Positions 2,996-64,000 of a DNA stretch of 64,000 bases are shown here, one piece after another (the stretch's first letter is position 1; every line of letters begins with the position of its first letter). The notes under the pieces were generated by a model. It had not been told where the DNA came from. It saw nothing but the letters and a program-made list of their open reading frames with translations, and did no database searches. Made by a program: the position numbers and the translations under genes. The DNA is from Blasia pusilla (Eukaryota): positions 31,496,001 through 31,560,000 of the forward strand of contig CM114271.1 in the NCBI GenBank assembly GCA_050084515.1. The letters run 5' to 3'.

Positions 2996-3074
2996 TAAAA
3001 GACCATAATGGGTAACGTGATAAAAAATGTCGATGTCGATGTCGCTCCTCGGCAACTGCAAATCTCCAAGAGGC

Positions 3075-5919: not shown

Positions 5920-5951
<32 letters not shown>

Positions 5952-6900: not shown

Positions 6901-7499
6901 TCTGATTACTAAGTGCAAGGAGAAAAGAAGACTTGTGTTAAATACCCTTTAAGGTTTCCCCATACGTAGGCATCCACATAACATGAGATTGGAGTATATG
7001 ATCTTACCCTCTTGGGACTCCATCCATTGGTGGGAATATTCGATGAAAATTTCAACATCGTAAGACCATCCGGGCACTTATACAATGAAAATATACATAT
7101 TATCAATTCTCAATATGTCCAACCTGTATTTATTCTAAATTCTTTCATTGCCACAATAGTGTCGAACCTCAAAATCATTTGTTCATTGAGCAAGGCCAAG
7201 TTAGAATGATTACCTCATGTTTTTTCTTTTTGGTCGTGGATAGTTGAAAACTTCCTCTTCGACTTTAGTTTTGTCACTTCCTCGATTCAAAAGCTCTCCT
7301 TCTCCTTGGTAGCAACTTGTTGACTATCAAGGATAGTGGTGGATGGAGGCATGTGAAGATTTTTTTCGGAAAACAATCTACAGATGTTCCATTGGAAGAT
7401 GAGAGGGGCAAAAATGTAGTCGGAATGTTGAGGGGGCCAGATGATGAGTTCATTGAGGTTTTTGAACCACCCTAGTGTCCAAAAGTCCGAGACCGCATG

Positions 7500-37790: not shown

Positions 37791-38459
37791 CATGATCCTA
37801 CAATCTTGAAATTTGACAGCTAAATCTGCCCACCTACATCAAAATCCGCAACTCCAAGCAAAATCTGCAACAAAATTTTACTTGAAATTGACCTAAAATG
37901 TGCCGCCGACTGCGGTTGAGACCCTACAAATTTCCTATTCCATCGAATTAGCCCACATCCGTCAAAATCCAAAACCCCAATCCCGGCATTTCACTTCAAA
38001 TTGCATCAATGTGACCTCAAATCTGCCTCGGGCTGCACTTGAGACCCTAGCGTCCCAAATCCACACATTAGCCGCCAAAGCTCCACAATCGCAATCTGCC
38101 CAAGAGCTCGTCCCCAATCCGCACAATAGCCGGCCAAAGCTCTGCAATCGCAATCCGCCCAAGAGCACATTCGACCTTCATCACCCTCACCCAGAAATCG
38201 AGCTCATTTGGCCTCAACCTCAAATGTGAAAATTGAAATCTGAAAAAATCACCCTCGGCCTAGCCGTGCTTGCCCCTGGCCCACTCGCGTGCATGCATCG
38301 AAGGTTTCTCTTCAATATCCAAGGTCGAGCTTCAAGAAACTACCGTCGGGTGCAGACCATAGATTGGCAACGCATCATAGCCGCAGGCCAGTCCGTCCCC
38401 TAGTATGCACCGTAGCCGCAGGCCGACCTGACTCCCTTACGCGCACTTTAGGAGCGGCT

Positions 38460-40040: not shown

Positions 40041-40259
40041 ATGGTAGTTTAGCTGCCGACCTGTGATTAGCAGCCATCCAGAATAGGCGCCACTCCAAGC
40101 CTCATTGGCATGTTGATTGTTCATTTTGGCTTGTGAATATTTACAACTTTTTGAGATAAATACGTCATTGAGAACATAATTTGCGTTCCAACATGAAAAA
40201 ATATCATAATTTTGCATACCAGGAAATAAATGGGCCACAAAAGACAATTCCATCCGACT

Positions 40260-43430: not shown

Positions 43431-43764
43431 GTGCTACAGGGTTTGTCCTCATTGAAAATAGGGAGACCTTTGGCTCTGATCTTTGCGCCAAATCTACATA
43501 TTCTAAGTCAATACCATTTCTTGCTGCGTGCGCAATGCTTTGCTTTATAATTCAGCGAGCACCAACAATCTAGTGAAAACTCAAACTCGTTGAAGCTGCG
43601 GAACACTTGCTTCAATTGTATCTGCTCGACATGCCTCCTTACTGCACATGATGACCCAAAGGTTGTTAATCAATCTAACTTTTACTACGGCTAATGACTG
43701 CGCCATGCCGATAAAAATCATAAATGCAAACTTACATTGTATCCACCAAATATCCACTACGGTG

Positions 43765-44545
43765 GCTATTGTGAGTAGGCTCACCTCTCAAAAGTACAAA
43801 ACAACTGCAATGACGGCTATTCAGAGTAGGCTCACCTTTCAGGGGTACAAAACAACTGCAACGGCTGCTATTTAGGCGGCTATTCTGAGTAGTATCACCT
43901 CTTAGGAGTACAAAACAACCGCAACGGTAACTATTTTGAGTAAGCTCACCTCTCAGGAGTACAAAACAACTGCAACGGAGGCTACTCTGAGTAGCCTCAC
44001 CTTTCAAGAGTAAAAAATTACTACAACGGCGGCTATTTCGGAGGCTAGTCTAGGTAGGCCAACCTCTCTAAAAAAAAATCTACAACGGCGGCTAATTCGG
44101 CGGCTATTCTGAGTTGGCTCACCTCTCAAAAGAACAAAACAACTACAACGGCGGCTAATTTGGTGGCTATTCTGAGTTGGCTCACCTCTCATGAAAACAA
44201 AACAACTACAACGGCGGCTAATTTGGCGGTTATTCTGAGTAGGCTAAGCTCTAAAGAAAACAAAAAAATTTCAAATGCGGCTAAGTCGACCACTCTTATG
44301 ACTAGGCTCAACTCTCAAGACAACAAAACAACTACAAGGGCAGTTAATTTGGAGGCTATTATGAGTAGGCAACCCTCTCAGGAAAACTACAAAAACTACA
44401 AAGGTAGCTAATTCGGAGGCTATATTGTGAGGAGGCTCAGCTCTCACGAAATCAAAAATACTGCAACGGCGGATATTTTTCCGGCTATTCTGAGAAGGAT
44501 CACCTCTCACGAAACGAAAAATCTACAACGGCGGCTATTTCGATT
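43765..44545. repeat. Subterminal tandem array, ~52-70-bp unit, about 11 copies
   Basis: Recurrent GGCTATTCTGAGTAGGCTCACCTCTCA...AAAACAACT(G/A)CAACGGCG; units are mutually similar with no unique spacers. Confidence 0.9.
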
Positions 44546-45386
44546 ATGGTGGCGGCTATTGCGACAATACTCATCGTTTCTGGATCAAATATCCATCTCG
44601 ACGGCTATTTTGACGACCAGTAAACCCTTAGCTTTAGAATCCGGCGACATGTTTACCTTCTTCTAGGCTGAACCCTCCGAGACAGGGATCATTCTAGGAC
44701 GTGGATGCTCGCCATAACTCGAAAGCAGCCGAAGACTCTCTTGATGGTGGCCTTCGTTCATAAGATCCGCAGTTTTGGTCTTTGCGACTTGAACCAAACA
44801 ATCCATTGTCATCCACAAGAAAATGTTGTCTGCTCAAGTCTGGAAAATCGTCATCAGTACACGAGAGGTCAGGATGTTTGGGTAGCTCGACACCATCCAT
44901 TCTCTTATCAAGATGATGAACAATAAACACTGATTAGTAAACAAATTAACATGTGCTAGAGAGTGTAAGCACGAGTGTTGATCACGATTTGCATGATCAA
45001 CAGTCCTAACTTGAGAGTGACAAACCCTAACTCGGGATTGTTCCTATATCCAAAACTTGTTTGCTATAGTAACTACGTAGAAGAACATTTGTACCAAGTG
45101 GTTCGAACTGACGTGGCAGTTGAAAGGGGCCGTTCAGGCAAGAGATTTTGTATGGGGACCGGTAAAGCAAAAAGAATCCGCATGGGGGCCACTTAAGTAA
45201 ATACCTGATATTGTTGCAGTTTAACTAGATTTCGAACCAGGCAGCCACCCATACTAGAGTAGGTAGCTCATCTACTCACACTCATGTCCATATGTAGGTA
45301 GCACCCTCAGGTAAGCAAGATACCGTCGGAAAACCCACAACCAAGTACCGATAAGATTAAAAGAGCAGCATTTAGGAACCTTTCAA

Positions 45387-48088: not shown

Positions 48089-48418
48089 TGTGACGTCTTT
48101 CAGGATAGATCGGCGAGATCTACTAGAGCGCCTTTGGAGATACTAGAAGATAGCCTCAGGAGGTCAAGGATGACATGTTGAGGCCGCAGGTAACTTGCGA
48201 GAGCAGTTTCCCCTTCGTTTTGGCTCATTTGGAGCCATATTGAGGAACTTACTATTTTGGGTAAGTTATTATTTTTGGTATAGTTGAATTTCTACTTTGG
48301 GAAGTGGCCCTTGACCCGCTACAACACGTCAAGAGCCAAGGAGGTGATCTGCGAGCACATGTTACCGAGGAGAGAGCTTGGGAGAGGGAAGGGGATATAC
48401 CTCCAAGAGAGAGAGAGT
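48089..48418 (+). mobile_element. Copy D, 5' terminal 330 bp (interrupted by copy B)
   Basis: TGTGACGTCTTTCAGGATAGATCGG... is the reverse complement of the copy A terminus (~5945-6274); homology resumes at 63267. Confidence 0.85.
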
Positions 48419-48726
48419 TGTCATGCACATACACATCGCTACACAACATACATCACTGTCACTGAACACACACACAAACACTCACGATCCCATGCTCACT
48501 TATGGCATACAAACAACGAAACAAGAAGTTACAAAATATCTCCAATCGCCCCTCTAGCTAGTGGTTAGGTCTCTCTAACTCCAGATAGCCATCTATCCCT
48601 ACCTACCATGACATACATCTCTCGAACGCTAAGAGCAAGAAGGCCGGGTGCTCGTGTGGCCCCATCGTTAGTCGCCTTCTTGTCATCCATGTCAGAGACA
48701 CAAGTCGGAATGTAGAAGTACCTACT

Positions 48727-51480
48727 CTATGTACATCTAGGACACATCCATCGTCCCTGAGGAACCCTAGTGAGAGGTGGCATCAAACATGCCATATACC
48801 ATCCTCTCGAACATCCATCACAGACTAGCATAGTGGCTGCATCACGGGCTGAACCACACAACATACATCATAAGCATGCAGGAACTATTGCTAAGCTTGG
48901 ATCAACTATCTCGTCAATGTTCGGAAGGTGATACGACGTACAGCTCAATGTATCCCGATGGTGCGCAATTGCCAAGTTCTCAAACGCCATGGGCATCACT
49001 CTCCGAAAAAATTCAGCCCTCTGAGAATATGCTCGTATCCATACATCACGGTCATCAAGGTTCAACACCTCACCAACATCTCGACGAATGGCCGCACGTA
49101 AATCTAGCTCTCGGCCATACAAAAGCAAGTACGGTGAGAAAGACGCTAAGGATGCCCGCCTGATGAATCTATATCCCATCACCAACCATAGATATTGTAG
49201 GTCCCAATCTCCTAGGTGATCTCTCTGCAAGCCATATTTGCGTAGTCCTCTCTTCATCGTCTGCACAACCCGCTCCGCTTGTCCATCTGCCTTAGGATGA
49301 TCCCGCGAAGTAGTGCGATGGTCGATCAGTGCCTGACCACACAAGGCTTGAAACTCCCCATGGAACTATGTACCCTGGTCTGTCAACACCTCAGCTGGTG
49401 CGCCGTAATGACTCAGCACTCGATCTAGGAAGGCATACACTATTCCCTCACTTGCTTTTTCAGGCAATGCAACCAACTCTATCCACTTCGAGAAGTGCTC
49501 GACCATCACCAACACATAACAACTATGGCGCTCCGTCAAAGGCAAAGGTCCTGCAAAATCCAAACTTCATCTATAACCTAAACCCATGATCAGGAGTGGA
49601 TGCAAATGTGGAGTCGGAAAATTGAACAATGCTCAGACTTGATCACACACCATGCTTATGAAAACTAACAACTAAACGTTAGTCTGCATGCCTCGCCACC
49701 AATACTGAATCTGAAGCAAGCTGTACATCCGCTTCACTCCAAAATGAACCAACTCCTCGTGAACATGATGCACCAAACGTGCTCTCTGCGAAGGATGAGG
49801 CACTACATGCACTCTACCATTCTCCCACACTCGCAACACATGTGTCCCCTCCCACCAAAACCGTCTGGCTCGCTGTAGGATCCGATCCCGGTCTCTAGCA
49901 CCCACCGTGCTTGCGACGCTGCCAGTACGCAGGTACTCCAAGATCACTCCATCGTCGTGAATGTCTCGGCCACCTGTGGTCTCCTCACCCGCCTCTAGAT
50001 CTAAGGACTCTCCATCAGACCTCGCCATCAAAGTCTCAGAAATTTGGCTCCCCATAGCCAACAAGCCTAAATAGGCTCACTCTTGGCACCAACTCCTCAT
50101 CACTCTCACCATGCCAACGAGCTCCTGTCGCATCTCGCTGAATCGAGCATGGATTACGGCTCAAACCATCTGCATCCTGGTTTAGCGTCCCAGGTCCATG
50201 CACCACCTGGAAGTCATACTCCTGCAACAAAAGAGCCCACCTTGCAAGCTTCCTTGTAAGCTTGTCGGACTCCATCAATCACTTAAGTGGCTGATGATCA
50301 ATAATGATGGTAAAGGGATTCTTGAATACATAACACATGAAATGTGCGACAGCCCACACTACAGCCAAGCACTCACTCTCATACGAGCTATACTTTGCCT
50401 CTACAACGTTGTTTGAGCGACTAGCATAAGCCACCATGAACTCTCTACCATCATCGTCATGCTGGGTGAGCACGACTCCAAGCCCCAACATGCTCCAATT
50501 GGTATGCAACTGGAAAGAACGCCCCCTGATCGATCTTCTCAATATGGGCGTGGACGTCAATTTTTCCTTGAGCATCTGAAATGCTCTCCTTGTTTCAGTT
50601 CGATTGCGAAGACACTTCTGATCCACCTTGGTCATCAAGGTGAGCGGCTTCGCAATCGAACTGAAACCTTTGACGTACCGTCAATAGAAGTTCGCCAATC
50701 CCATGAATGCACAAACTCGACTCATATCTATAGGGCGTGGAATGCATGAAATAGCCTCTACTTTTGTTTGTTGCACACCAAGGCCTTGAGGGTATATTGT
50801 ATGACCCAAGGACTCAATCTTGTCGTAGAAGAACTTGCACTTTCCTGGATGTAGCTTCAGCCTATGTAACTGCAATCGTCGAAACACCTCCTCTAGATGT
50901 CGCTCATGCTCCTCAACCGTGGTGCTAAAGACTACAATGTCATCAATATAACACCTAGAAAAATCCAGACCTGCCAAGATACTATCCATGATCCTCTCGA
51001 ACTCAGCCGGGGCATTCTTTAACCCGAATGGTAAGAACCGCCACTAGTACAAACAATCCTTCCCGTGAGGATCGATGCCCCAAAATGCCATCTTCTGCGT
51101 GTCCTCTAATATGATATGTAGCTGATGGTATCCGGCTCGCAAATCCAATGAAGTGAAGAAATTTGCATGCCCAATCGCATCAAAGATCTCTTCAAGGGTG
51201 GGCATGGCATACCTATCGGACTTTGTCCGCCGATTGATAGGTCGGTAATCTCCATACATTCTTCTATCCGTCTAGTTGTCATGCACATCCTTCTTGGCGG
51301 GCATGACAGTGGCAGATGCATACTCTCCATGCGACATCTCCACTACTCTTGCGCCAACCAAGTCTTGGCTCCTACTCTAAATCAGAGCTTTCTCCATGTC
51401 ACTATACCTGTAGGGTCGTCGAAAGATCGGCGTGTCACTCGATAACTCAATGCGGATCCATGGACCCTTCAGCGTACCTA
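48727..51480 (-). pseudogene. RT-RNase H-integrase-PHD of copy B (degraded)
   Basis: DYRPIN, LDLRAGYHQ, YIDDIVV (RT); LHTNWS, YASRS (RNase H); DFAGPLP, VLTDQGT, ADGQAERVVQT (IN); CMLC...CDGC...WYMAC...WMCPRC (PHD, 48730-48867, His changed to Tyr). Confidence 0.92.
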
Positions 51481-51884
51481 AATCATGCATACTAAATGCA
51501 AAAAACTCCTATAACTCCTAAGGAATTGGTGTATCCGGCGCAACTCTCCTTCGTCAACTTAGGGTTCATATCTGGCTCCCAAGTCTCCATCGTGACTACG
51601 GTAGGACTCTCCGGCGCGGGTGTGAGTGGTTGCTATGGTGCAACCCCGTCTCGGACAACAAAACTCTCATCTCCACGTGCAGTACCCGGAACCACACTCA
51701 ATGCTATGGCTATCATCTCCTGTCATACCTGCAAAACATCCCAAGAAGTCTAAGGATGTCTCTCCCGATCACCCTTGGTGTGTCGATCTCCTTGGATCTC
51801 ACCCCCAGCCATTGTCTCAACCGTCTCAGTAGGCATGGGGCTAACCAATGCAACATCTATGATCTGTTGCATCCTCAAACGACG

Positions 51885-52835
51885 TTACTCATCTGCGCCT
51901 AAGCTTAAAATCCATGTCAAGCAGTTCAGGTCCATTGCCTGACCCAAGCAATGACGTCGCGATGCTTCTGATAGTGATGGTACTGCCGTTACTCCTGTGG
52001 AAAATCCCATCGCTTGCTCTCGCTCATCGACATTGGGCTCCACCAACCTCTTTATCTGGTCATCCCAAACCAAGCGAGGTCCGCCCTCCTTGAATGCATA
52101 GGAAGCGGGAAAACTTATGAATGTGGGAAAGGCTGCCCGTGGCATGCCAATCCTGTTGACCATAGTCAACGGCTGTCGATCATAATGCCTCACTGCCTGT
52201 GATCGACGACATGGATCTAGAATAGAATCCACCAACAAATCAGAGGGGCACTCCACTCTAGCATACGCCCTCTGCAAGACCTCATGTAGGACCAAGTTAG
52301 TCCACCACATGCAAATGCGCGCGGTGTGCTCTAGAATCTACACTTGACGCATCCAAAAACACTGCCGGGCCGATCCATGCGTGCACCTGATGTGCACTTG
52401 TCACCACGTGGGACCTCAAATCGTCCAAAATTGGCACATTCTCCAGAATGTATGTTGGAGAACGAGATTGAAGCTCCTGCAAGTGTCGCAAAATCCGCAT
52501 CATCTCCCAAAACAACTTCGACCGAGAGTCAGCTAATCCGCTACCCGGTCCAGCACTCGACTGGCCCTGACATGGCCAACCAGCAATGACCAAGTCTATG
52601 GTCCCTACCCGCTCCAAGTCCTTTGCCCCCACCAATGAAATGCCCCTCGGTAGGGAACTCTGGTAATCCTGAATGGCGGACGCAGACAACAAGTCGGGAA
52701 AACGAAGGCGTAACTGTGCCACATGGTGAAGTGAAGGGCATCTTGCAACATCATCAATCTCCACATACAAGTACTGCTGCACGCGCACTCCAGCCTGCAA
52801 AATAGCAGCTAACCCTTGGATGCACCACGCAATCG
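51885..52835 (-). pseudogene. DNMT3-like methyltransferase domain of copy B
   Basis: YVEIDD (motif II), DLVIAGWPCQG (catalytic PC), ILENV (motif VI), SRAHRA, WWTNL, EREQAMGF...RRHCLGQAMDL. Motif I is lost by a short deletion relative to A and C. Confidence 0.9.
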
Positions 52836-53379
52836 GGGTGGTGTCCAAAGGGGTCATAGCAACACTCCTGGCTACCTGGGGTTCTTTTGACCCATCACAC
52901 TCTAGTGCAAACGTCTCACTCCACGCGGTCTGCACATGCTCAATGGCTGAGCGTCAAAGCTCCTCAGTCGAGCCCAAAAGTGGCCTCTCTCTTCCATGGA
53001 CTGATGCGGCTACCATGACACTCCTCTCCATGGAAATGTCACAAACGGGAGTATCCTCTGCATGGACATGTCCCTCAATCAAATCACTAGCCCAAGTGAT
53101 GGCACTGCTAAATGCTGCTAAGGTCGCCATCTCTCCTCGTCGTCGCTCGATCACTGCACCTGTGAATCAAACGGGTAATAAGCTAAGGTGCCCATCACCT
53201 GGTCTGTATGATGCTGAATCCTCCCAGTAATCCAGGAAAAACCCCATCGGGTATAACACTGCTCCACCAACCAAGACGTTGTACGACTCTACATCAGTCA
53301 CTATCGCCTAGGGGACTCATCTGTAGGATGTCCCGAGCGAATCCTCACCACGACCTCCTCTCGTGTGATATACTGTGTG

Positions 53380-55797
53380 GTACTCACTACACCCAAGGAT
53401 GTCTGTATCCACAATGGACAACGCTCCACATCGGCTCTCGTCAAGCTCAATCCTCTGAATGACGCTTTCCCCAACATCAAGGGTCCAACAAGACGCGCTG
53501 CGAACTAAAAGCTCTACCTTCTAGACTCACCAACTGGAAAACCTATCCCCAGTTATCCAGTAACACAACACGAGGAGAAGCCATGGTACGCTCTATCGTG
53601 GGTCTAGCAGACATCTCCACCATCCTAACAGCCGCAGCCTGCCATGAATCTGACGTGGACGGCCTGAGCATCCGCTCCAAGGGCAGGTCCATCACCTCCT
53701 CTGCAATCACCTATGAACGTGATGCAAGAACTCCAACTTCACGCTCACATAGCATAGCGTCCAGCCGAAACACCTTAGCGGGCGTACCTCCCAATGTCAT
53801 AACATCAGAAGCAAAAAATAGCGGAGCACGGTACACCATTGTGGCCGCCCCCAACATCATATTCGACACATGCTCCTCCTGAGCATCAACAATAGGAGTC
53901 ATCGCACTCATTTATTCCATTCTCCTCCGTGCCTGCACACCAATAACATCATAAACTCTTCGGGAACTCTGATCAAGACCCGTCGATGGGGTCCTCATCG
54001 CCTCGGACAATGTCAAAGACTGAGGAAGCCTAGACTATTTCTTAGCTTCCCCTCGTTGTGGATCCAACTATGCCACTGCTCCATGCGTCACAACAGCGGG
54101 GGCCTCCATCTGGACAACCCCGCACATCCAACTAAGATCCTCCATATCTCTGGCTGCTCCATATGATGTCGATGCCACGGATCCGGCATCGGGTAATCTC
54201 AATGCCATAGTTGCAATCTGATCTTGTAGCTGCTGTATTTGAGCAGCCATCCCAGCCTCACGCCCGGAATCTCCCTCGATGCGTCTAGGGATTGGAACTC
54301 TACCTCCTCCACGGGCAGCTCCACCACCCTGTCGGGCAGCTCTAGCTCCTTGCCCCCCAATAGAACCACTTGGTGCACGATCTCTAGGCCCACCCCAACC
54401 GGCTAGTCGCTCTGGTGCCCTCTCTGGCCCTCGGTCCGGAGTAACTCAGGGTGTAAGCTGAAACACCTCGCGCATGTATGACCATACCTTTGATAATAGT
54501 CACATTGATAACCTCTTGGTGCAGCACCATCTCCTCCTCCATGCTGAGGCACACGTCCATGACCCTGACGAGTGCAATCACATAGATTATGGGTTCCATC
54601 ACATGACCAACAAGTAATCATAGGCGGCTGCTGCTGAGCTGCATATGAAGACACAAGTCTTTGTGGCACGGCCTCTTGGTATCCTCCCTGAGCTCGTGGT
54701 GCCACATTCAACCTATCTCGGAGTCCACGTTGCTACACTCGTGGTGCAGACACGATTGTCTGCACCACCAGTGCAGCAACCCGATAGTGATCCACCGTAC
54801 ATATTGATTGGTCCTATCACTTGGGCGTACGAGATGGACGACCGGGCTAGAGGACTGCGTAGGTTTTTGGGTGCTCTAGGCACTATAGAGCTACATGACT
54901 TCATTTCCGAGTTTAGGAGTTGGTGTGACTCACAGCGGGCTAGGAAATGTAGAGAGTTCAACCCGTTTACAACATGGAACGGTATGTTCCAGCATGTAGA
55001 GGGGGCGCCCATGGACGATTACCATAAGTTCTCCCACAGATATGCCCAAGAGATTGAGGCATGGCGACTCTACTATGACCCACACTATATGTCATGGACG
55101 GAGCCGTTCCTTGATGAGGAGGTGGAGTCAGGAGAGGCTACTTCCTCTTCCACTAGTGATGTTTTAGGAGGGGTCACTCGCACTGGAGCAATTGCACCAT
55201 CTGGTCGGGTTTGTCCCAGGTTCAACCCCGTGGTTGATTTCTTCTTCCAGGAGAGGAAGTAGCCTCTCCTGACTCCTCCTCCTCATCAAGGAACGGCTCC
55301 GTCCATGACATATAGTGTGGGTCATAGTAGAGTCGCCATGCCTCAATCTCTTGGGCATATCTGTGGGAGAACTTATGGTAATCGTCCATGGGCGCCCCCT
55401 CTACATGCTGGAACATACCGTTCCATGTTGTAAACGGGTTGAACTCTCTACATTTCCTAGCCCGCTGTGAGTCACACCAACTCCTAAACTCGGAAATGAA
55501 GTCATGTAGCTCTATAGTGCCTAGAGCACCCAAAAACCTACGCAGTCCTCTAGCCCGGTCGTCCATCTCGTACGCCCAAGTGATAGGACCACTCAATATG
55601 TACGGTGGATCACTACCACACTCCTCTACACGCTCCCCCTGGTCTAAAGACGACATAGAAGGAGATGAAGGTGGTCTCTCACGTGGATACCTTCGAAACC
55701 TCGTACCACTCCTGGTAAACCCTCCAAAGCTACTCTCAGGTCCACTATCTCGCCTCTCAAAATCCCGAAAGGACGCCGTGATGGGCCTCGTGCCCAT
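53380..55797 (-). pseudogene. Gag and protease region of copy B (rearranged)
   Basis: ORF 55222..55797 is gag N-terminus-like; knuckles CWSCDGTHNLCDC and CDYYQRYGHTCARC (54403..54711); protease region has a small deletion at the active-site motif. Confidence 0.7.
54785..55615. repeat. 364-bp inverted duplication within gag of copy B (103-bp spacer)
   Basis: 54785-55148 is the reverse complement of 55252-55615. ORFs 54645..55262(+) and 55222..55797(-) share a ~120-aa stretch with 2 differences. Confidence 0.95.
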
Positions 55798-57499
55798 CTC
55801 ACATGATCACTCTCAATCTCGAAAGTAATCCCTCAATCACTAAAACTAAATTTGCGGCACTCAATTTACACTCTCTTACCGAGACATGTGCTGTGCGGCA
55901 ACAAGCGGCGTGGTGTGGCAATCGGCTATCATCCTATCATCTCATGAAAAAGACATACCCTCAACTCTGGACATCCCACACAAATCTATGTCCCCTTAAT
56001 CCATACATCAATGATGCTCTAAGCATCTGCACGAAACCCAATATCCTCAAATAACTGCCAAATACCCGTAATTCCCTCACACTTGCAGGGTAAGAGACCA
56101 GAATGGGTAACCTGACAATAATGTGGATGTCGCTCCTCAAAAACTACAATCTCTACCCCAACTCGGTCGCGAAAACAACTCCTCCAATCAGCAAGTCGTA
56201 CTTCTCTCGTACTGAGACTCCTCAAACCTCCTCGATGCGCGGTGCAGGTCTAGCGGTCCGGTGCGGCACTGGCGGCACGGAATGGCTATAAACGGCACGG
56301 CACTCGGGAATGGGGTGCGGAACTCGGCAACATGCCCTCCTCAATCAGAAATTCACACGCCCTGCTCCTAAGTGAAGGAACGGCTCCGCGATCGAGATGG
56401 TGCGGTGCGGCAATCAGCGGCACATTGCGGCTACGGATGTCACGACAGAGTACTCGATCGTCGTCGAGCGGCTACCAATCACAACATATTAGCATGAAAT
56501 GAAAACTCAAACACCATAACCCGAGGTCACCTATCATCAGTGGTTGATGACGAAAATTTGATGACGGTGGCGGCCAAAAAATATGAGGTGGTGGTGCAAG
56601 TCAGAGAATTAACAGTTGTCGTGGAAGATCCTCCACTCTGTAATGGCGGCAATGGCAACCAAGGGTGGACAACGGCCGAACCTGGCTTTGAGTAGTGTTA
56701 GGCACCGGCGGTAGCCGATAGTGGACGGTGGACGGTGGACCGTTGATGTTTACTATGAAGGCGATGGCCGGCGGCGGCTTGGCGGGTGGTTTAGGGTTTG
56801 AACAATTTAACCCTAAAAATCGCTTAGCAATGGCAGTTTTTCAAGATTGACTATAAATTTTTGCTCGCAACTCCAAATTGTGCAGCGTCTATTGCACAAG
56901 GTGCAAAATTTGACGATCTACGACAATATCAAAAAATATTTTAAATTGGACATTCCAATAAAAACTGACAGGGATTGTCGTAAAGCCCAACGTCTCTTTC
57001 TCATACATAAAATCGTTGGAAGAAATTAGCGCGGAAGCGCTGATTTCTCCCAAAAAAAGTCTAAAACCTATGGGAGCAAATCAGCAAGCTACATGGTGCT
57101 CCCGAAAGCATCGGCATAGAGCAATCCGCCCCCATACTCAATTCCTATAAAAAATTGGGCAGCGCTTCCGCGTGCCACTCTCATGTACAAAAAATCAGCA
57201 AAACAAAACAACAAACTGGCTCGGTTCTTGCTCTGGTGAGCACTCCCATGAACCATGAAGCGGTAAACACGGTCCCCCAACCTGCACCAAACATCGAGCA
57301 ACCAGCGAGCTCCCCCATGAAGCTCTCTCACTCACTCATTCTCTCTTTGTAAAATAGATCCAATCTCTCTCATGTCACATCTGAGTAGCCGATAGGCCGA
57401 GATCTATCGTGGATAGGGCGTAGGAGCCAGCGGACTATCTTGAGTGTAACTTTGTCCCACAGTGTCGGATGAGGTTGAGGATAGGTCCATTGTGTCAAG

Positions 57500-57871
57500 A
57501 ACGTCGTTTCAGACGACTTTCATATTGAGGTCTTTTACAGCCGGGTGACTTGTTGACCAAGTCACCTGCCCTTGGTAACCTATGCGCGCAGTTACCAAGG
57601 GAAGGGCTATTCTTAGGGTAAGAGCCTTTTGGCTCTTCCCAACCTATATAAGAGAGGAAGATGGCTTTCCTAAGCCATCTTTCTCATGTTGGGCCGTTGG
57701 AGCACCTCCCTTGTATGTGTGTGAGCTAGGATTAGGGTGCTAGCGTCTGGATTCCTTGATAGCACAGGGTGGACGAGGCTCGATATGCTGATGTAGATTG
57801 AGGAGTGGAGTTTTAGGCCGGGTGTGCCGTTTTTACTATTCTTTATTTCTAGGTCAGGTGACGGTCGGATG
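57500..57871 (+). promoter_or_regulatory. Structured leader of copy C: four hairpins, TATA box, candidate leader intron and ATG
   Basis: Hairpins 57544-57566, 57569-57601, 57620-57637, 57658-57681; TATATAA 57645-57651; polypyrimidine tract plus AG at 57851-57852; in-frame ATG at 57869. Confidence 0.5.
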
Positions 57872-58249
57872 AGTCAGTTATCCGTGCAGTTTGCGGGACG
57901 AGGTGGTCGATCACGAGGCGAGTCTGTGACCACGTTGGCGGCTTTCACAGGTAGTGTTAGCTGGCCAGGAGAGTTGTTGGAGGGGAACGCACATGCGGAG
58001 GATGTCCCAGTAGCGGATAGTCCCACGGAGAGACAGGCCATGGCGGGTGTCTCTTCCCATGTTAGCGATGCCTCTTCACCATTATGGGGTACGACTCGAG
58101 AGCTACAGAGAAGTGCCGACGACCTCGTGAGGCAGGCGTGGAGTCATGTTTTTATCCCAGAGCAGCGAGAGTCACGTGGCGATCGGGCTCTTGGAATGGA
58201 GACGATGACTCCACTAGATATCACACCTGTTGTGTGGCAGTTCCCAGAG

Positions 58250-59200
58250 GAGGGTGTTAGATCTCTTCGGAGGGATTAGCACCGGATTGGCGGCCATATT
58301 GCAGGCGGGCATACGGGTGCATCAGTACCTTTATGTGGAGAGAGATGAGACCCAAGCAGTATCATTACGTCACGTGGCGAGATTGGTCCGAGGTATCCTG
58401 AGTTGTTGTTGGTATCTGCGAAGACGGGATACCAAAGATACACTACCCGCCGACATATCTTTGGTGGGGCGCAGGATCTGGATAGAGTTGGCACCATTCA
58501 TTTGGTGATTGCTTTGGATGGCCATGTCGGGTCATTCATCGGTGGCCGAGGATTTGGATTGCAGGATCCGAGGTCGGGATGTTTTGGGAGATCTTTGCGA
58601 GTAGTACGACACTTGCAGGAGAGTCGATATATTCTCCAAAGATACATTTTGGAGAACGTGCCGTTGTTGGGCGATACTCGTGCACGTGTGATGACGAGTG
58701 TACATCGGTGAGTCTGGTTGGGGGACCATTTGTGTTGTTAGATGCAGCGAGAGTTGGGTCACGTGCCCATCGCCCACGCATCGTGGTGGACAAACCTGAT
58801 GCCATCAGAAGTACCGAGTCGAGCCTATAGTGGAGTTCAGAGAGCACCACATCTCACAGTGGATGCTATTTTGGACTCAGGGCGTCGATCTCAGGTGGTG
58901 ACACGCGATGATAGACCACCGTTGGCCACGGCCAATAGGGTGGGGAGTTGAGGGAAGCCTTACCACGTTGGTGAGCTTCCCAAAGATCCCATGCCTTTCG
59001 CCGGGAGGGCAGGCATGATTTGGGATGAGGTGACCGGAGTATTGGAGGAGCCTACAGTAGATGAGCGCGAGCGCGCCATGGGGTTCACTACCGGTACTAC
59101 GGCGGTGCCAGGGATAATTGAGGCATCACAGAGATAGGTGTTGGGGCAGGCGATGGACCTCAACTGTCTCACATGGATAGTCAGCCTAGGTATGGCTGAG
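58250..59200 (+). pseudogene. DNMT3-like methyltransferase domain of copy C
   Basis: Motif I RVLDLFGG (ORF 58230..58508), GGATGGCCATGT (GWPC) at ~58516, ILENV (ORF 58403..58711), AHRPR/WWTNL, ERERAMGF...LGQAMDL. Confidence 0.88.
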
Positions 59201-62200
59201 CAGAGACGGATGCGAGTGTCATCCATGCCGTCACGTCCACGAGTTGGACCACCGCCTCTGTGGTCAGATAGGCATTGGCTAGGGGCGAGACGAGGAGAGA
59301 TAGGCACCCATGGACTTCCTGGGACGTCGTTCGAGCAGAGAGTGCGAAGGCGGCTAGAGTAGCACATGTTCATTTTTCGGATGTGGAGCATGGTGTAGGA
59401 GGTCGAGTGGAGTGGTGTTATGAGGTGGCTAGGGTTGCTACATAGCAACCAAAGCCGGAGGTTGCGTCCTCTCCGAGTGAGGTCACGATGGAGACTTGGG
59501 AGCCTGTGATAGGTCTCAAGTTGATAGGAGGAGAGCGACGGCGAGTTCATAGGTTTCTGAGAGGGCATGTTAGTTGTTTTGCCTTCAAGATGAGAGACTT
59601 GGACGCACGCTGAAGGGTCTCGGATACTAATTGAGTTGGCTAGTGATACGCCGATCTTTTCGTCGACCCTACTGGTATTCTCATATGGAGCGAGCCTTGA
59701 TTCGGAGCAGGAGTCAAGACTTGTTGGAGGCAGGACTTGTGGAGTTATCACATGGGGAGTATGCATCTGCCACAGTCATGCCGGCAAAGAAGGATATGTA
59801 TGGCAATTGGATGGATAGGCGGATGTGTGGAGATTACCGTCCTATCAACCGATAGACGAGGTCGATCGGTATGCCATGCCTACTCTCGAGGAGATCTTTG
59901 ATGCGGTAGGGCATGCAAAGATCTTGAGACTTTAGATCTCCCGTCTTTGGCTATCATCGCCTTCCTATCAGGTTGGAGGATGGGAGAAGACAACATTCGG
60001 GGATAGATCGGTTCTCGAGAGATTGCTTGTATCGATGGCGGTTCTTACCATTTGGGTTGAAGAACGCTGCATGGAGTTTCGTAGAGATCGATGGATAGGA
60101 TTCAGGTGGCTTGGATTTTGTACGATGTTATATAGATGATATTCTTATCTTGATTCCACGGTTGAGGAGCATGAGCGACACTTGAGGAGGTGTTTCGGCG
60201 ATTGCAGTTACATGGACTGAAGTTACATCCAGCAAGTGCAGATTCTTTCAGAGCAGATTGAGTACTTGGGACACACCATATACCCGAGTGGGTTAGGCGT
60301 TCAGACGAAGGTAGAGGCTATTTGCAGATTCCACGCCCTCTGGATGTGAGTCGAGTCCGAGCATTTCTTGGATCGTAACTTCTATCGACGGTATGTCAAG
60401 GGTTTTAGTGCGATCGCAAAGTCTTTGACCTTGTTGACGAGACTTGATCAGGTGTGGTTGTGGGGAGATGATCAGGAGCGAGCATTTCAGGAGCTCAAGG
60501 ACATGTTGACGTCCTCACCCATTTTACAGAGACCGGTTAGGGGTCGCCCATTCCAGTTACATACGGATTGGAGCATGTTGGGTCTAGGAGCAGTGCTTAC
60601 TCAGAGGGATGACGAGGAGAGGGAGTTCGTTGTGGCTTACGCGAGTCGATCGAACAACATTGCAGAGGCAAAGTACAGCTCCTACGAGGGAGAGTGCTTG
60701 GCTGCAGTGTGGGCCGTGGCACATTTTAGGTGCTATTTATTTGGCAACCCTTTCACACTTATCACTGATCATCAGCCGTTGAAGTGGTTGATGGAGTCCG
60801 ACAAGCTTACGGGAAAGCTTGCCAAGTGGGCTCTATTACTACAGGAGTATGAGTTTGAGGTGGTTCATAGGCCAGGTTGGCTGAACCAAGATGCGGATGG
60901 GTTGAGTCGTAACCCATGTCCGAGTCAGAGAGACGTCACGGGAGCTCGATGGCACGGAGAGAGTGATGAGGAGATGGTGCCCGGTTGGCATGCATCTGCC
61001 TATCTTTGTTGGTTGACTATGGCAGGTCAGCCACAGATGATGACTCCAGTGGTGGGATTGGATGATGAGTCTTTGGATCCGGAGGTTAGTGAGGAGGCGA
61101 CAGGTGGTCGTGATATCCATGACGACGTGGAGGTTGTGGACTTCTTGCGCACTGGCGTCATTGCGAGTACAGTGAGTGCTAGGGAGCGGGATCGGATCCT
61201 ACAGAGAGCCAAGAGGTTCAGGTGGGAGGGGACTCACATTTTGCGGGTATGGGGAGATGGTAGGATACGAGTGGTACCTCATCCTTCCCAGCGAGCACGT
61301 GTAGTGCGACATGCCCATGAGGAGTTGGGACATTTCGAGTAAAGCGCATTTACGAGCCTTACTCTAGGTTCAGTATTGGTGGCGCGGCATGCATACTGGG
61401 GTACAGCAGTTTGTGGCCAGATGTATGGTATGTGACAGAGTGCGAGCATCCTTCAATGCTCCCACTCCGCAGTTACATCCTTTGCCGATTATGGGTTTAG
61501 GTTATCGGTGGAGTTTAGACTTTGCGGGACCTTTGCCATTGACAGGGCGTCATCATAGGTACGTGTTGGTCATGGTGGAGCATTTCTCCAAGTGGATAGA
61601 GTTGGTGGCACTACCAGACAAGGCGAGCGAGGGAACAACTTATGCGTTTCTAGATCGTGTGCTTAGTCACTTTGGTGCACCGGCGGAGGTGTTGACCACT
61701 GTGGTACCGAGTTCAGGGGAGAGTTTCAGGCTTTGTGTGATCAGGCGTTGATAGATCACCGCACCACGTCCAGGGATCATCCTGAGGCGGATGGATTGGC
61801 GGAGAGAGTGGTACAGACGGTGAAGAGAGGATTGCGCAAGTATGGCTTGCAGCGGGGACAGTTGAGGGAGTGGGACCTACAGTTGCCATGGTTGGCTATG
61901 GATTATCGCTTTAGTCGGAAGGCATCCTTGGCGTCATTTTCACCGTACTTTTTGCTCTTTGGGAGAGAGCCAGATTTACCTGCAGCGATTCGACATGACA
62001 TGGCGGAGGTGTTAGATCTTGATGATCCAGATGTGTGGGTGCAAGCATGTTCTCAGAGGGCAGAAGTTTTTTGTAGAGTTATGCCTATGGCCTTTGAGAA
62101 CTTAGCTATTGCCCAGCATAGAGATACATTGAGGTACGCGACCATAAGTGGAGGAGGTTATCGTCCAGGGATTAAGAGGTTTCATCCTGGAGATTACGTG

Positions 62201-62413
62201 TATTTACAGCAAGCGGCACCCACGACGCTAGATGTCACTGCAGGGCGCACTATCCTACGTGTGCGCGAGGTATTATGGACCGGAGTCCTCATGTTGGAGG
62301 GACGAGATGGTATGGTTTGGAAGGATCATGTGCGCAATTGTGCACCATGTCATCTTCCGAACGTAGATGGGACGGTGGATCCAAGCTTGGCAGTGGTACC
62401 TGCAGGCTTGAGG

Positions 62414-62551
62414 TGTATGTTGTGCGGATCTGCGAGGGGTGCAGCCACCATGTTGGTATGTGATGGTTGTTCTCGAGGGTGGCATATGTCATGTCTGACC
62501 CCCCCTCTTGATGTGGTTCCCACGGGACGATGGATGTGTCCGAGATGTGTA
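62414..62551 (+). other. PHD finger (C4HC3) fused to the integrase C-terminus
   Basis: CMLCGSARGAATMLVCDGCSRGWHMSCLTPPLDVVPTGRWMCPRC; all eight ligands present and in frame with the integrase core (ORF 61733..62554). Confidence 0.95.
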
Positions 62552-63266
62552 TAGGGTAGTAGGTCATGTCAGAGAGATGTGATATTTTCTATCTGGAGTT
62601 AGGGGGATCCACCTGCCAGCTAGGGGGGCGGTTGTGTGATCTCCATGTATATGTATGAGTTCATTTTTGTACATGTGTGGATCGACCTGTGTGTGGGGAA
62701 GATCAGTGTTGTGTGGTGTAGATGTGACGAGCGATGTATGTTGTGTAGCGATATGTATGCGCACGACACTCACAACACCATAGTTCTCACATGTGTGCAC
62801 TCTCACATGTCTCTCTCAATGTCAAACCAAACCCACTCTCCTAATGAGAGGCTTGGGTTACACACACAAGGCAAGCAAGACCATAGCTCCGCCGCCTCAT
62901 GCCAAGAGGTTCAACAAAGAGAGAATGAGCTCTCAAGCTCTCTCTCCTTGAGGTATACCCCTCCCCTCTCTCAAGCTCTCTCCATCGTAACCTATGCTCC
63001 CAAGTCACCTCCTTGGCTCTTGACATGATGTAGGAGGTCAAGGGACACTTACCAAAATTAGAAAGTTGATCATACACTTAAAATGATATTTATCTTAAAT
63101 AGTAAGTTCCTCTATATGGCTCCAAATGAGTCGAAACGAAGGGAAAACGTGCTCTCTCAAGTTTCCCGGGGCCTCAGTAGGTCATCCTCAACCTCCCGAG
63201 TCTGTCCTCCACTACTCACAAAGACGCTCTACAAGATCTCACCGATCTATCTTAAAAGACGTAACG

Positions 63267-64000
63267 GCTCATTCTCTCTTTGTTGAACCTCTTAGCATAA
63301 GGAGGCGGAGCTATGGTCCTCCTTGCCTTATGTGTGGAATCCAAGCCTCTCATTAAGAGAGTGGGTTTGGTTTGACACGAGAGAGAGTGCACACCATGGA
63401 GAGCTTGGTATGAGAGCTTGTTGGTGTTGATGAGAGATTCCACTGAGAAAATGAGTGAGTGAGAGAGCTTCAATGGAGGAGCTCGCTAGTCACTCGCTAT
63501 TGGTGCACGTTGGGGACCATGTTCCCCACTCAGCGGCTCAAGGGAGTGCTCATTGGAGCAAGAGCCGCTCGATCTTGCTGTTTTCATCGCCAATTTTTCG
63601 TGTGAGAGAGTGGCACGCGGAAGCGTTGCAAAAATTTGGTTGGCAATTGAGTATGGGGGCGGTTTTCCCCACGCTCTTGGGAGCACCTTGTAGCTTGGTG
63701 GTTGTTGTGTTTATAGGTTTGCAATTTCTGTTGGGAGAAATCAGGGCGGAAGCGCTGCCAAATTTCTTGTAGGATAGCAGATATATTAAAGGGCTCTACC
63801 ATACTCCTTGTCAATTTTTATTGGAAGGTCCGATTGAAAAGAAATTTTGGATGTTTTCGTAGATCGTAAAGCTGTGCAGTGCACGCTGTGCAATTTGGAG
63901 CTATGAGCAAAAAGTTATGACCAATTTTGCAAACTGCCAATTTTTAGGGTAAAAATTGTCAAACGCTATACCAGCTGTTGCCGTCACTGTCATCGCCGTC
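63267..64000 (+). mobile_element. Copy D continued (5' leader; runs off the right edge)
   Basis: Reverse complement of copy A ~5920 back to ~5150; resumes where 48418 stopped. Confidence 0.85.

Follow-up and report, generated by a model that had tools for sequence, protein, structure and literature searches.

A Ty3/Gypsy-Like Retroelement Family with a DNMT3-Like Methyltransferase and an Integrase-Fused PHD Finger in a Bryophyte-Like Genome

Three Copies of One Family Lie in the Window

The window, the 64-kb stretch of DNA analyzed here, contains three copies (A, B, and C) of one Ty3/Gypsy-like family, each harboring a C5-methyltransferase (MTase) domain at the same position of the polyprotein. 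The tblastn queries were L073, an intact element from metagenome data, and P0007, a Marchantia protein spanning gag-PR-MTase. The features are listed below in window coordinates (PR, protease; RH, RNase H; INT, integrase).

1-2995, minus: copy A, truncated at the window start (self-alignment, tblastn)
2105-2980, minus: copy A gag (tblastn)
1702-2025, minus: copy A PR (tblastn)
about 222-1165, minus: copy A MTase (tblastn, frameshift-aware alignment)
about 48419-55600, minus: copy B, the fullest of the three, 5' end approximate
55297-55551, minus: copy B gag N terminus
54403-54732, minus: copy B CCHC region
53331-53483, minus: copy B PR
51900-52953, minus: copy B MTase
51633-51635, minus: copy B TAG
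50084-51502, minus: copy B RT-RH
48946-50034, minus: copy B INT
48733-48867, minus: copy B PHD
48419-48616, minus: copy B B-type 3' repeat
57373-62764, plus: copy C, whole insertion (5' repeat/leader, MTase, RT, RH, INT, PHD, 3' B-type repeat)
about 57373-57799, plus: copy C 5' terminal (A-type) repeat and leader (junction reads, arrangement in moss relatives)
58218-59206, plus: copy C DNMT3-like C5-MTase domain (tblastn, ORF map, frameshift-aware alignment)
59443-59445, plus: copy C in-frame TAG (TAG CAA CCA) at the MTase/RT boundary, homologous to the stop in L071-L073
59658-60349, plus: copy C RT, fragmented (tblastn with the L073 polyprotein)
60545-60850, plus: copy C RNase H (Pfam RT_RNaseH, E 3e-35, on ORF 60350-61342)
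61368-62410, plus: copy C INT with H2C2 zinc finger, rve core, and C-terminal region (Pfam, tblastn)
62414-62551, plus: copy C PHD finger at the integrase end, stop codon at 62552-62554 (Pfam PHD, L073 alignment)
62559-62764, plus: copy C 3' B-type terminal repeat, ending in CA, 69% identical to copy B 48616-48419
4838-6273, plus: repeat T, intact copy, high-copy and noncoding, with TGTCAC...GTGACA ends
56451-57372 and 62769-63265: repeat T split by copy C
48089-48417, minus: repeat T, partial, adjoining the copy B 3' end
63267-63975, minus: repeat T, partial

Pfam searches matched DNA_methylase in copy B (E 7e-12, ORF 52297-52953, minus strand), PHD in copy C (E 2e-11, ORF 61667-62554), and rve together with Integrase_H2C2 in the copy C ORF at 61368-61751; RVT_1 and RT_RNaseH are also present in the window. 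All four profiles that an earlier note on this DNA had proposed searching (DNA_methylase, RVT_1, rve, and PHD) found matches. By tblastn, the domain order is gag, PR, MTase in copies A and B and MTase, RT, RH, INT, PHD in copies B and C; copy C lacks gag and protease. Copies A and B share 83% identity across 3 kb, and B and C are 74% identical in RT-INT and 65% in the MTase. These findings bear out the earlier note's description of three copies with a C5-MTase at one shared position, 3' of protease in A and B and 5' of RT in B and C, and, by Pfam and alignment, with a PHD finger terminating pol in B and C. What required correction was the strand of copies A and B, which is minus, and the extent of copy C, which had been placed at 57869-62554; the copy is present, but its actual span is 57373-62764.

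Copy C begins with TG and ends with CA, is flanked on both sides by CTCA (57369-57372 and 62765-62768), and sits inside repeat T, which is uninterrupted at 4838-6273. The region as a whole is a nest of repeats. The segment at 57373-57799 has no second match inside the 64-kb window. Reads and contigs from the same organism connect 57373 with the copy C 3' end (to 62768), as expected of a B1-to-A2 junction, and by eye the final 30-odd bases of the copy C B repeat look similar to the terminus of the 114-nt B repeat in the moss loci. Same-organism DNA contigs accumulate over the element and not over the sequence on either side of it. RNA reads map to the element in sense orientation, at low depth; most are just 95-99% alike to the window element and therefore derive from other family members.

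The Window Copies Are Decayed

All three copies are dead. Scored by frameshift-aware alignment, the copy A MTase contains 7-8 stops and its PC motif reads LC, while copy B has lost motif I and keeps PCQ and ENV. The copy C MTase retains every motif wording, with one stop (at 59135) and 16 frame changes called between 58250 and 59011, a count that varies with the alignment penalty; the ORF map independently shows that three frames are used. The C4HC3 residues of the PHD finger are intact in copy C, and in copy B the His is replaced by Tyr and a stop lies just upstream. The dN/dS values for the window MTases are 0.41 (A-B), 0.16 (A-C), and 0.155 (B-C), and that for A-B gag-PR is 0.66. Since the copies are dead, no writer-plus-reader of the kind pictured in the earlier note works in the window today.

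Intact Relatives Place the Methyltransferase Before an In-Frame Stop

The intact metagenome relatives encode gag-PR-DNMT, one in-frame TAG, and then RT-RH-INT-PHD. In L073, ORFs of 1369 and 1047 aa lie in the same frame with a single TAG between them, and L072, 76% identical to L073 at the DNA level, shows the same split. The MTase is thus in frame with pol in both elements, one stop apart. Its assignment "inside pol" in the earlier note holds insofar as it belongs to the polyprotein, but a simple pol placement does not: in the intact relatives it ends ORF1.

A stop occupies the homologous site in window copies B and C, in L071-L073, and in all 58 moss-group loci that cover it (44 TAG, 14 TAA). 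The codon after the stop is CAA in 54 of these 58 loci, followed by CCC in the moss group and by YYA in the window copies and L071-L073. In gammaretrovirus gag-pol and in the tobamovirus-type arrangement, a single in-frame leaky UAG likewise separates an upstream structural ORF from a downstream polymerase ORF, and the context is alike in that CAA or CAG comes directly after UAG, with YYA next in the window copies and L071-L073. Unlike in those viruses, no conserved stem or pseudoknot was found in the RNA 3' of the stop, and the moss group has CCC instead of YYA. We infer that ORF2 is probably made by read-through of a leaky TAG; the MTase would then be produced along with Gag and protease and would outnumber RT and integrase.

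The terminal repeats are arranged A-coding-B-A-B in L032, L068, L058, L015, L049, and L006, and a lone B repeat is found in seven further loci. The two B repeats are 94% identical within L032 and within L058. Target duplications of 4 bp were observed as CATA (L032/L068), AAGG (L058), CACA (L045), and CTCA (window copy C).

Between L073 and L072, dN/dS is 0.114 for the MTase, 0.047 for the PHD finger, 0.027 for RT, and 0.029 for INT; by this sequence comparison, the MTase and PHD are under purifying selection in the relatives.

The Methyltransferase Resembles DNMT3

Searched against the PDB, a 14-sequence profile of the MTase matched DNMT3A (5e-16), DRM (3e-8), and HaeIII (9e-6). A 39-sequence profile matched DNMT3A (2e-26), DNMT3C (4e-24), and DNMT3B (2e-23), followed by tobacco DRM (2e-16), DRM2 (6e-13), HhaI (1e-9), and DNMT2 (1e-7); DNMT1 and chromomethylase were absent at E 0.01 or better. 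An AlphaFold2 model of the domain has a pLDDT of 96.3, and the Foldseek matches listed, down to rank 50, were all DNMT3A, B, or C (TM 0.72/0.82). VIA-align Z scores were 29.2 for DNMT3B, 27.8 for DNMT3A, 26.2 for the bacterial CpG methylase M.MpeI, 23.2 for HhaI, 19.6 for DNMT1, and 18.3 for ZMET2, so that the fold gap between DNMT3 and M.MpeI is small. In a protein-language-model atlas, phage methylase clusters rank first. The catalytic residues, the PCQ Cys, ENV Glu, and RxR Arg, are invariant in all 39 aligned sequences and present in 5/5 open copies. Collectively, the profiles, model, and fold comparison support the DNMT3-like character that the earlier note had read from the motif wording; placement in the DNMT3 clade rests on the profile and fold ranking.

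The catalytic domain of animal DNMT3A/3B, the best match by profile and fold, has the same unpermuted order of motifs I to X and agrees in how motifs IV, VI, VIII, IX, and X read. However, the element MTase lacks a PWWP or ADD domain on its N-terminal side; a retroviral-type protease comes before it, and the stop and RT come after. It is also ∼40 residues longer than the 285-residue DNMT3A domain, with which its identity is 21-26%.

The PHD Finger at the Integrase C Terminus

The solved PHD fingers nearest to that of copy C are those of CHD4, PHF12, DPF2/3, KDM5A/B, PHF21A, ATXR5, and AIRE, and we take it to belong with these structures as a reader type that binds the H3 tail in its unmodified form. 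No Pfam chromodomain match was found in copy C or L073. Chromoviruses, Ty3/Gypsy elements with an integrase-fused chromodomain, also carry a histone reader at the integrase C terminus, from which the chromodomain is known to direct integration. In contrast, the reader of the window family is a PHD finger and is paired with a DNA methyltransferase. The PHD could tether integrase to unmodified-H3 chromatin and so bias insertion away from active promoters, a role we propose tentatively. PHD-bearing retrotransposons are on record from green algae (Perez-Alegre 2005; Kapitonov and Jurka 2003, as cited in PMC6673714 and PMC8557442).

Family Range and Relation to Published Elements

The named homologues belong to Marchantia, Calypogeia, Sphagnum, and one Scenedesmus, the closest being from land plants (liverworts and mosses), in agreement with the extension to land plants anticipated earlier. 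Among 1.84 billion representatives, 407 clusters match the family at E 1e-30 or better. Many database proteins share its layouts, including a second one in which the MTase lies between RNase H and integrase (RH-MT-INT).

The window copies belong to a high-copy Ty3/Gypsy-like family of the "Gypsy-DNMT3" kind, originally reported from the charophyte Klebsormidium; this precedent, which the earlier note mentions, is borne out by the literature (de Mendoza et al. 2018, Nat Commun 9:1341, PMC5890265). KnitGypsy-Dnmt3 of Klebsormidium nitens is described there as having an unpermuted DNMT3-type MTase in a polyprotein with Gypsy domains, numerous intronless copies, and, per the Fig. 4c legend, A-coding-B-A-B repeats rather than plain LTRs, all features that it has in common with the window family. 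Purifying selection on the MTase is common to both (Ka/Ks < 0.2 in KnitGypsy-Dnmt3, 0.11 in relatives of the window family). The hosts differ, a charophyte alga there and here a bryophyte-like genome with bryophyte or bryophyte-associated sequences, and neither the PHD finger nor the MTase/RT stop is mentioned for KnitGypsy-Dnmt3 in that paper's main text. SymbioDIRS-Dnmt3 of Symbiodinium, as presented in the same paper, likewise has A-coding-B-A-B repeats and a retrotransposon polyprotein that includes a DNMT3-like domain, and two domain orders coexist in it, as PR-MT-RT and RH-MT-INT do here. However, it integrates by a tyrosine recombinase, whereas the window family has a DDE integrase and 4-bp target duplications. 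No paper in the literature searched describes the range in bryophytes, the putatively leaky stop, or the pairing of PHD with MTase.

Discussion

Taken as a whole, the locus is very likely best explained as decayed copies of one Gypsy-DNMT3 family whose layout is given by its intact relatives. The repeat-rich setting, with copy C inside another repeat, would also suit a nesting accident, in which a host DNMT3 pseudogene was interrupted by or lay beside ordinary Gypsy elements. This reading is refuted by the uninterrupted gag-PR-MTase ORFs of L073 and L072, each followed by in-frame RT-RH-INT-PHD; moreover, the MTase position is equal in the three diverged copies and most of 80 metagenome loci, and many database proteins have the same layouts. 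Capture of the MTase from a bacterium or phage, with mere resemblance to DNMT3, is improbable. The two nearest atlas clusters are mostly phage proteins and M.MpeI scores close to DNMT3A, but in the profiles DNMT3A/B/C outscores any bacterial enzyme by 17 orders of magnitude and DRM by 10, motifs VIII and IX, once aligned, read as in DNMT3A, and the K. nitens copies group with Dnmt3 in the published tree (PMC5890265).

For the Gypsy-DNMT3 family so defined, the MTase is predicted, with some confidence, to methylate DNA cytosines. That it is conserved yet catalytically silent or repurposed, for example as a DNA- or chromatin-binding module in the particle or preintegration complex, is unlikely given the invariant catalytic residues and the low dN/dS, although the only published Gypsy-DNMT3 assay, of the KnitGypsy-Dnmt3 domain in yeast, as reported in PMC5890265, gave no methylation; its authors drew no firm conclusion from this, because human DNMT3B failed there too. 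The putative target may be newly made cDNA of the element itself or its recent insertions, a suggestion we regard as plausible but short of an even chance. An active enzyme might, somewhat doubtfully, instead be selected for a target elsewhere, such as host DNA near insertions, competing transposons, or RNA, the benefit then being self-limitation or host tolerance rather than cDNA marking. Synthesis upstream of the stop, with Gag and protease and hence in excess, would fit such a target, and the authors of PMC5890265 assign no definite role; the RH-MT-INT layout, however, sets the MTase beside the cDNA-handling enzymes and suits action on cDNA at least equally well. Whichever the target, a kind of element previously described in a green alga is here a large family in mosses and liverworts.

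Three Decayed Copies of One Gypsy-Like Family in the Window

Stop-to-stop ORF maps of the window, combined with Pfam and tblastn, bear out the claim of an earlier note that three methyltransferase (MTase)-bearing copies, A, B, and C, of a Ty3/Gypsy-like retroelement are present. Domains were mapped by tblastn with two queries, the Marchantia protein P0007 (1278 aa: gag, protease, and methylase) and the polyprotein of L073, a metagenome locus of the same family.

Copies A, B, and C and their Pfam-supported ORFs (PR, protease; RH, RNase H; INT, integrase)
1-2995, minus: copy A, truncated by the window start; gag, PR, MTase (tblastn)
~48419-55600, minus: copy B; gag, PR, MTase, RT, RH, INT, PHD (tblastn)
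52297-52953, minus: ORF of copy B with C5 DNA_methylase (Pfam E 7e-12)
50681-51043, minus: ORF of copy B with RVT_1 (Pfam)
57373-62764, plus: copy C; MTase, RT, RH, INT, PHD, without gag and PR (tblastn)
60350-61342, plus: ORF of copy C with RT_RNaseH (Pfam E 3e-35)
61368-61751, plus: ORF of copy C with rve and Integrase_H2C2 (Pfam)
61667-62554, plus: ORF of copy C with a PHD finger at its end (Pfam E 2e-11)

Pfam on the window ORFs and L073 and the tblastn maps both show PR, RT, RNase H, and integrase in this order, the integrase being of the DDE (rve) type. A gag CCHC zinc knuckle is recognized by Pfam (zf-CCHC) on the relative P0018, and Cys/His knuckle wording is readable in the copy B ORF 54403-54732, a decayed ORF on which Pfam returns no zf-CCHC match. 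Copies A and B are 83% identical across 3 kb, and B and C are 74% identical in RT-INT and 65% in the MTase.

All three copies are dead relics, their decay being evident from a frameshift-aware alignment. The MTase of copy A contains 7-8 stops and has LC in place of the catalytic PC, that of copy B has lost motif I and retains PCQ and ENV, and that of copy C retains all motif wordings, although numerous frame changes interrupt its reading. The PHD finger of copy C is an intact C4HC3, while in copy B a Tyr replaces the His and a stop lies directly upstream. The CpG observed/expected ratio is 0.69-0.79 in the copies versus 0.60 in the remaining window, and no signal of copy-specific CpG depletion was found in the window. 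The gag region of copy B also harbors a 364-nt inverted duplication (54785-55148 versus 55252-55615), whose arms are 99% complementary; given the 17% difference between A and B, it arose long after the copy. Tandem duplications are found in the 5′ region of copy A (3674-4238/4241-4805, 566 nt, 86%; 3066-3212/3533-3676, 147 nt, 82%).

The Methyltransferase Is a DNMT3-Like Catalytic Domain

The MTase had been called DNMT3-type, and profile E-values and fold ranking agree in placing it nearer to DNMT3 than to DRM, DNMT1/MET1, CMT, DNMT2, or bacterial enzymes. Against the PDB, a single decayed ORF of copy B found DNMT3A hardly ahead of HaeIII and HhaI (E 5e-4, too weak to separate them), and a second B ORF gave no match. 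A profile of 14 homologues, by comparison, matched DNMT3A at 5e-16, DRM at 3e-8, and HaeIII at 9e-6. With 39 homologues the leading matches were DNMT3A (2e-26), DNMT3C (4e-24), and DNMT3B (2e-23), followed by tobacco DRM (2e-16), Arabidopsis DRM2 (6e-13), HhaI (1e-9), and DNMT2 (1e-7); DNMT1 and ZMET2 gave no match to this profile at E ≤ 0.01. In the family alignments and in the alignment to DNMT3A, motifs I, IV (PC), VI (ENV), VIII (RxR), IX, and X occur unpermuted, without the DRM-type permutation, and the wording of motifs VIII and IX is like that of DNMT3A. All 39 aligned sequences share, without exception, the catalytic Cys, the Glu of ENV, and the Arg of motif VIII.

An AlphaFold2 model of the L073 MTase domain, built on the 39-sequence alignment, has a pLDDT of 96.3 (an earlier model on 5 sequences, with a pLDDT of 58.7, was set aside). 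The best 50 rows of a Foldseek search with this model were all DNMT3A/B/C (E ~4e-20, TM 0.72/0.82). VIA-align against representatives ranked DNMT3B (Z 29.2) and DNMT3A (27.8) ahead of M.MpeI (26.2) and HhaI (23.2), with DNMT2 (~22), DNMT1 (19.6), DNMT5 (18.6), and ZMET2 (18.3) lower. Because the margin of DNMT3A/B over M.MpeI is small (Z 1.6-3) and the ESM Atlas, which returned C5 methylase only, with phage top clusters and a streptophyte cluster third, does not discriminate, the DNMT3 reading rests mainly on the sequence profiles. A published tree groups the Klebsormidium nitens copies with DNMT3 (PMC5890265). Upstream of the MTase, Pfam shows protease and gag only, with no PWWP or ADD N-terminal domain; we therefore restrict the term DNMT3-like to the catalytic domain and do not call the protein a DNMT3.

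A Conserved Stop Separates the Methyltransferase from RT

Metagenome contigs were scanned with the family alignment, yielding 80 loci, most of them decayed, as in the window. L073 has two long ORFs. ORF1 (976-5082, 1369 aa) contains an Asp protease and DNA_methylase by Pfam, with gag upstream, and ORF2 (5086-8226, 1047 aa) contains RVT_1, RT_RNaseH, Integrase_H2C2, rve, and PHD. The two ORFs share a frame and are separated by a single TAG (5083-5085). L072 shows the same split (stop 4661-4663) despite only 76% DNA identity to L073. Further naturally intact copies are L054, L016, L006, and Marchantia Mp_4g09160. The ORFs and Pfam matches of L073, L072, and database proteins thus establish a DNMT3-like domain in frame in a Gypsy polyprotein. 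The earlier placement of the MTase inside pol holds insofar as the domain is in frame with RT-INT; it lies, however, on the other side of a conserved stop.

This stop recurs throughout the family. Copies B and C read TAG CAA CCA at the site (51635-51633, minus strand, and 59443-59445, respectively), and L071-L073 read TAG CAG TTA or TAG CAA TCA. In the moss-type group, a stop is present in 58 of the 58 loci that cover the site (44 TAG, 14 TAA), with CAA as the next codon in 54. The codon that follows is YYA in window copies B and C and in L071-L073 and CCC in the moss group. UAG-CAR-YYA is the leaky stop context of tobamoviruses; copies B and C and L071-L073 match its sequence, and the moss group departs from it at the third codon. 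Many database proteins of 1330-1450 aa terminate directly past the MTase.

The simplest reading is that programmed read-through of a leaky UAG would yield ORF2. We infer this mechanism, given that the third codon in the moss group is CCC rather than YYA and that RNAalifold on 10 sequences found no conserved RNA structure 3′ of the stop (-0.99 kcal/mol, 3 pairs, no covariation). With such read-through, the MTase would be part of the Gag-PR product, the abundant one.

Purifying Selection and the Integrase-Linked PHD Finger

Neutral evolution, with dN/dS near 1, is not what the open loci display, the MTase ratio between L073 and L072 being 0.114. As dS between these loci is 0.7-2.6, the ratios are rough, yet they lie far under 1 in every domain. 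Those of the window copies fit changes accumulated mostly while the lineages were active, with neutral decay afterwards.

dN/dS by pair and region
L073 versus L072, protease: 0.15
L073 versus L072, MTase: 0.114
L073 versus L072, RT: 0.027
L073 versus L072, RNase H: 0.028
L073 versus L072, integrase: 0.029
L073 versus L072, PHD: 0.047
Window A versus B, MTase: 0.41
Window A versus B, gag-PR: 0.66
Window A versus C, MTase: 0.16
Window B versus C, MTase: 0.155

The PHD finger of L073 is matched by Pfam at E 3e-10 and, like that of copy C, has the C4HC3 pattern. The solved domains closest to it are CHD4 PHD2, PHF12, DPF2/DPF3, KDM5A/B PHD1, MLL3, PHF21A, ATXR5, KAT6A, and AIRE (E 4e-16 to 4e-10). 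The majority of these domains recognize the H3 tail in its unmodified state (H3K4me0). Chromoviruses carry a chromodomain at the integrase C terminus; in contrast, no chromodomain is matched there by Pfam in copy C or L073, and the PHD finger occupies that place. Given its C-terminal position on the integrase, the purifying selection on it, and the precedent of the chromoviruses, chromatin-tethered integration is the likeliest candidate role for this domain. PHD fingers in retrotransposons and chromodomain-steered Gypsy integration are both in print, as seen in the consulted parts of PMC6673714 and PMC8557442.

Element Ends and Target Sites

No plain LTR direct-repeat pair was found around A, B, or C at word sizes of 14, 11, or 7. 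Copy C starts with TG, ends with CA, and has CTCA on both flanks. It interrupts a separate host repeat, T, an uninterrupted copy of which is located near the left of the window.

Copies of repeat T in the window
4838-6273: intact, ~1.4 kb, non-coding, TGTCAC...GTGACA ends
56451-57372 + 62769-63265: split by copy C
48089-48417 and 63267-63975, minus: partial copies

Copy B ends at a 3′ end homologous to that of C and adjoins a partial T within a CT run. The organization of the ends is clearer in the moss-type loci, where an A repeat of ~340 nt (TG...) occurs twice, once 5′-terminally and once close to the 3′ end, and a 114-nt B repeat (...CA) stands on either side of the second A, giving the order A-coding-B-A-B. 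The two B repeats are 94% identical in L032 and L058. B-A-B is found in six metagenome loci, which represent five insertions because L032 and L068 have the same flanks, and a single B in seven; window copies B and C have the single-B form only. Target duplications are CATA (L032/L068), AAGG (L058), CACA (L045, single-B), and CTCA (window C), and the flanks of L040 show no matching duplication. The family thus has the TG...CA termini and the 4-6 bp target-site duplication of Ty3/Gypsy elements; in place of two identical flanking LTRs, the element closes with a further 114-nt B or with a single B.

These forms bear on how the window copies came to look as they do. Two other candidates, that the flanks are inverted terminal repeats or belong to an integrated one-LTR circle, were dropped, as the moss loci show A-coding-B-A-B and single-B forms with target duplications. 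We infer instead that the single-B copies, including window B and C, are collapsed forms generated by B-by-B recombination. Reads and contigs of the same organism link the B end to the A start (joint 62768 to 57373), like a B-A-B copy. Repeat T raises two further alternatives. Both insertions with a readable 3′ junction, B and C, adjoin T, another high-copy repeat, at CT-rich sites, and this adjacency could reflect target preference or plain abundance. T has four copies in 64 kb, and across the stretch examined contig depth peaks in the right part of T. The gag-to-T distance is, in addition, equal for A and B (~1.83 kb), so that A+T and B+T look like one old segmental duplication rather than two insertions.

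Other elements also populate the window. Decayed MULE-type DNA transposase genes are located at 10198-11993 (minus; Pfam MULE E 4e-7) and 40802-43069 (minus; 3e-6), and Cys/His wording in neighboring ORFs may be a SWIM-type zinc finger. A low-complexity block of degenerate tandem repeats at 38375-40260 (GC skew 0.48, AT skew 0.53) reads on the minus strand as a Pro/Ser/Phe/Leu-rich ORF, and 43745-44546 is a tandem array with a 63-nt period (~12 copies, 66-88% alike).

Abundance and Transcription

In DNA contigs from a run of the same organism, summed word depth is 1,657-221,881 in the element bins versus 1.8 and 30 in two flanking bins, values that mean very many similar pieces and are not a copy number. 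Three RNA runs labeled as the same species (~10-12 million records each) place 348, 436, and 385 reads on 16.5 kb, only 25, 26, and 33 of which are at least 99% alike. Over C the first mates map to the minus strand and over B to the plus strand, which, if the libraries are of the usual stranded kind, corresponds to sense transcripts, and loose read ends at about 58254-58285 (motif I) come from transcribed, more distant relatives. Collectively, these reads show low-level transcription of the family; most of them, only 95-99% alike, come from members other than the window's own copies. Air-metagenome runs contain 19-38% of the sampled words of the stretch, which is no evidence of habitat.

Family Range and a Second Layout

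Named homologues occur in Marchantia polymorpha (many gene models), Calypogeia fissa, Sphagnum, and the chlorophyte Scenedesmus sp. PABB004 (one "pol" protein); no K. nitens sequence was among these named matches. The window copies have at most 57% protein identity to these and ~70% DNA identity to the moss-type loci. A HMMER search of 1.84 billion representatives retrieved 9678 proteins at E ≤ 1e-3, of which 407 reached E ≤ 1e-30. Among the best 150 matches, the window layout (PR-MT or MT-RT) was found in 13 and the MTase alone in 60, while in 77 the MTase follows RT/RH or precedes INT, including 27 complete RT-RH-MT-INT-PHD proteins; a PHD finger was seen in 43. The complete order was confirmed by Pfam in the relative P0063. 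The MTase clade accordingly has a second, commoner layout, with the MTase between RNase H and integrase (P0052-P0063, P0074-P0149), and one named member of it is the Scenedesmus protein. On a FastTree phylogeny of 188 MTase domains, for which SH-like support only and no bootstrap was computed, one change of layout suffices for 86 RH-MT-INT and 51 PR-MT-RT rows, 51 rows of undefined layout being left out of the count.

Discussion

The feature is real and was correctly recognized; what the present analysis adds is its layout, its range, and test objects among its relatives. KnitGypsy-Dnmt3, the Gypsy element of K. nitens with a DNMT3 domain, is said to have been acquired "in the K. nitens lineage" by PMC5890265, the Fig. 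4c legend of which gives A-coding-B-A-B with Gypsy domains, the same arrangement as in the moss-type loci. Streptophyte retrotransposon DNMT3 receives one sentence in the consulted part of PMC12344493 and one in that of the preprint 10.64898/2026.05.21.726589, and the review PMC9033089 offered nothing on the subject. Our literature search found no account of bryophyte or chlorophyte Gypsy-DNMT3 members, nor a description of the MTase-RT stop or the PHD pairing, both of which the K. nitens element may already show, as its figures and supplements lay outside the comparison.

Taken jointly, the data could be read as one old green-plant Gypsy-DNMT3-PHD lineage, a tentative proposal that we consider somewhat more apt to fail than to hold in full. 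Such a lineage would span chlorophytes (the Scenedesmus "pol"), charophytes, mosses, and liverworts, leaving no place for a capture private to Klebsormidium. The MTase would have moved once within the polyprotein, with a single branch of the MTase tree separating PR-MT-stop-RT from RH-MT-INT. Elements of the bryophyte layout would make the writer at the Gag level, before the leaky UAG, and an H3K4me0-type PHD finger on the integrase would choose where the element lands. New insertions would in that case be pre-marked on arrival, lie in chromatin that is already silent, and be tolerated.

One practical consequence concerns annotation: bryophyte gene models named "DNA (cytosine-5)-methyltransferase," several Marchantia ones among them, are retrotransposon ORFs and not host methylation genes. 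More broadly, transposons that bear the enzyme normally used against them are a standing puzzle, and the sole Gypsy case that we found in print is one alga whose enzyme is not shown to work; its DNMT domain produced no methylation in yeast, a result that the authors call inconclusive (PMC5890265, in the part compared). The present family offers natural test objects in tractable plants (Marchantia, Sphagnum), with intact copies under purifying selection, and combines a reader on the integrase with an expression trick in which a conserved, predicted leaky stop would keep the MTase on the Gag side. It thereby makes testable whether such an element methylates its own cDNA, whether the PHD finger chooses the insertion site, and how both may affect the way in which host DNMT3/DRM pathways see the element.
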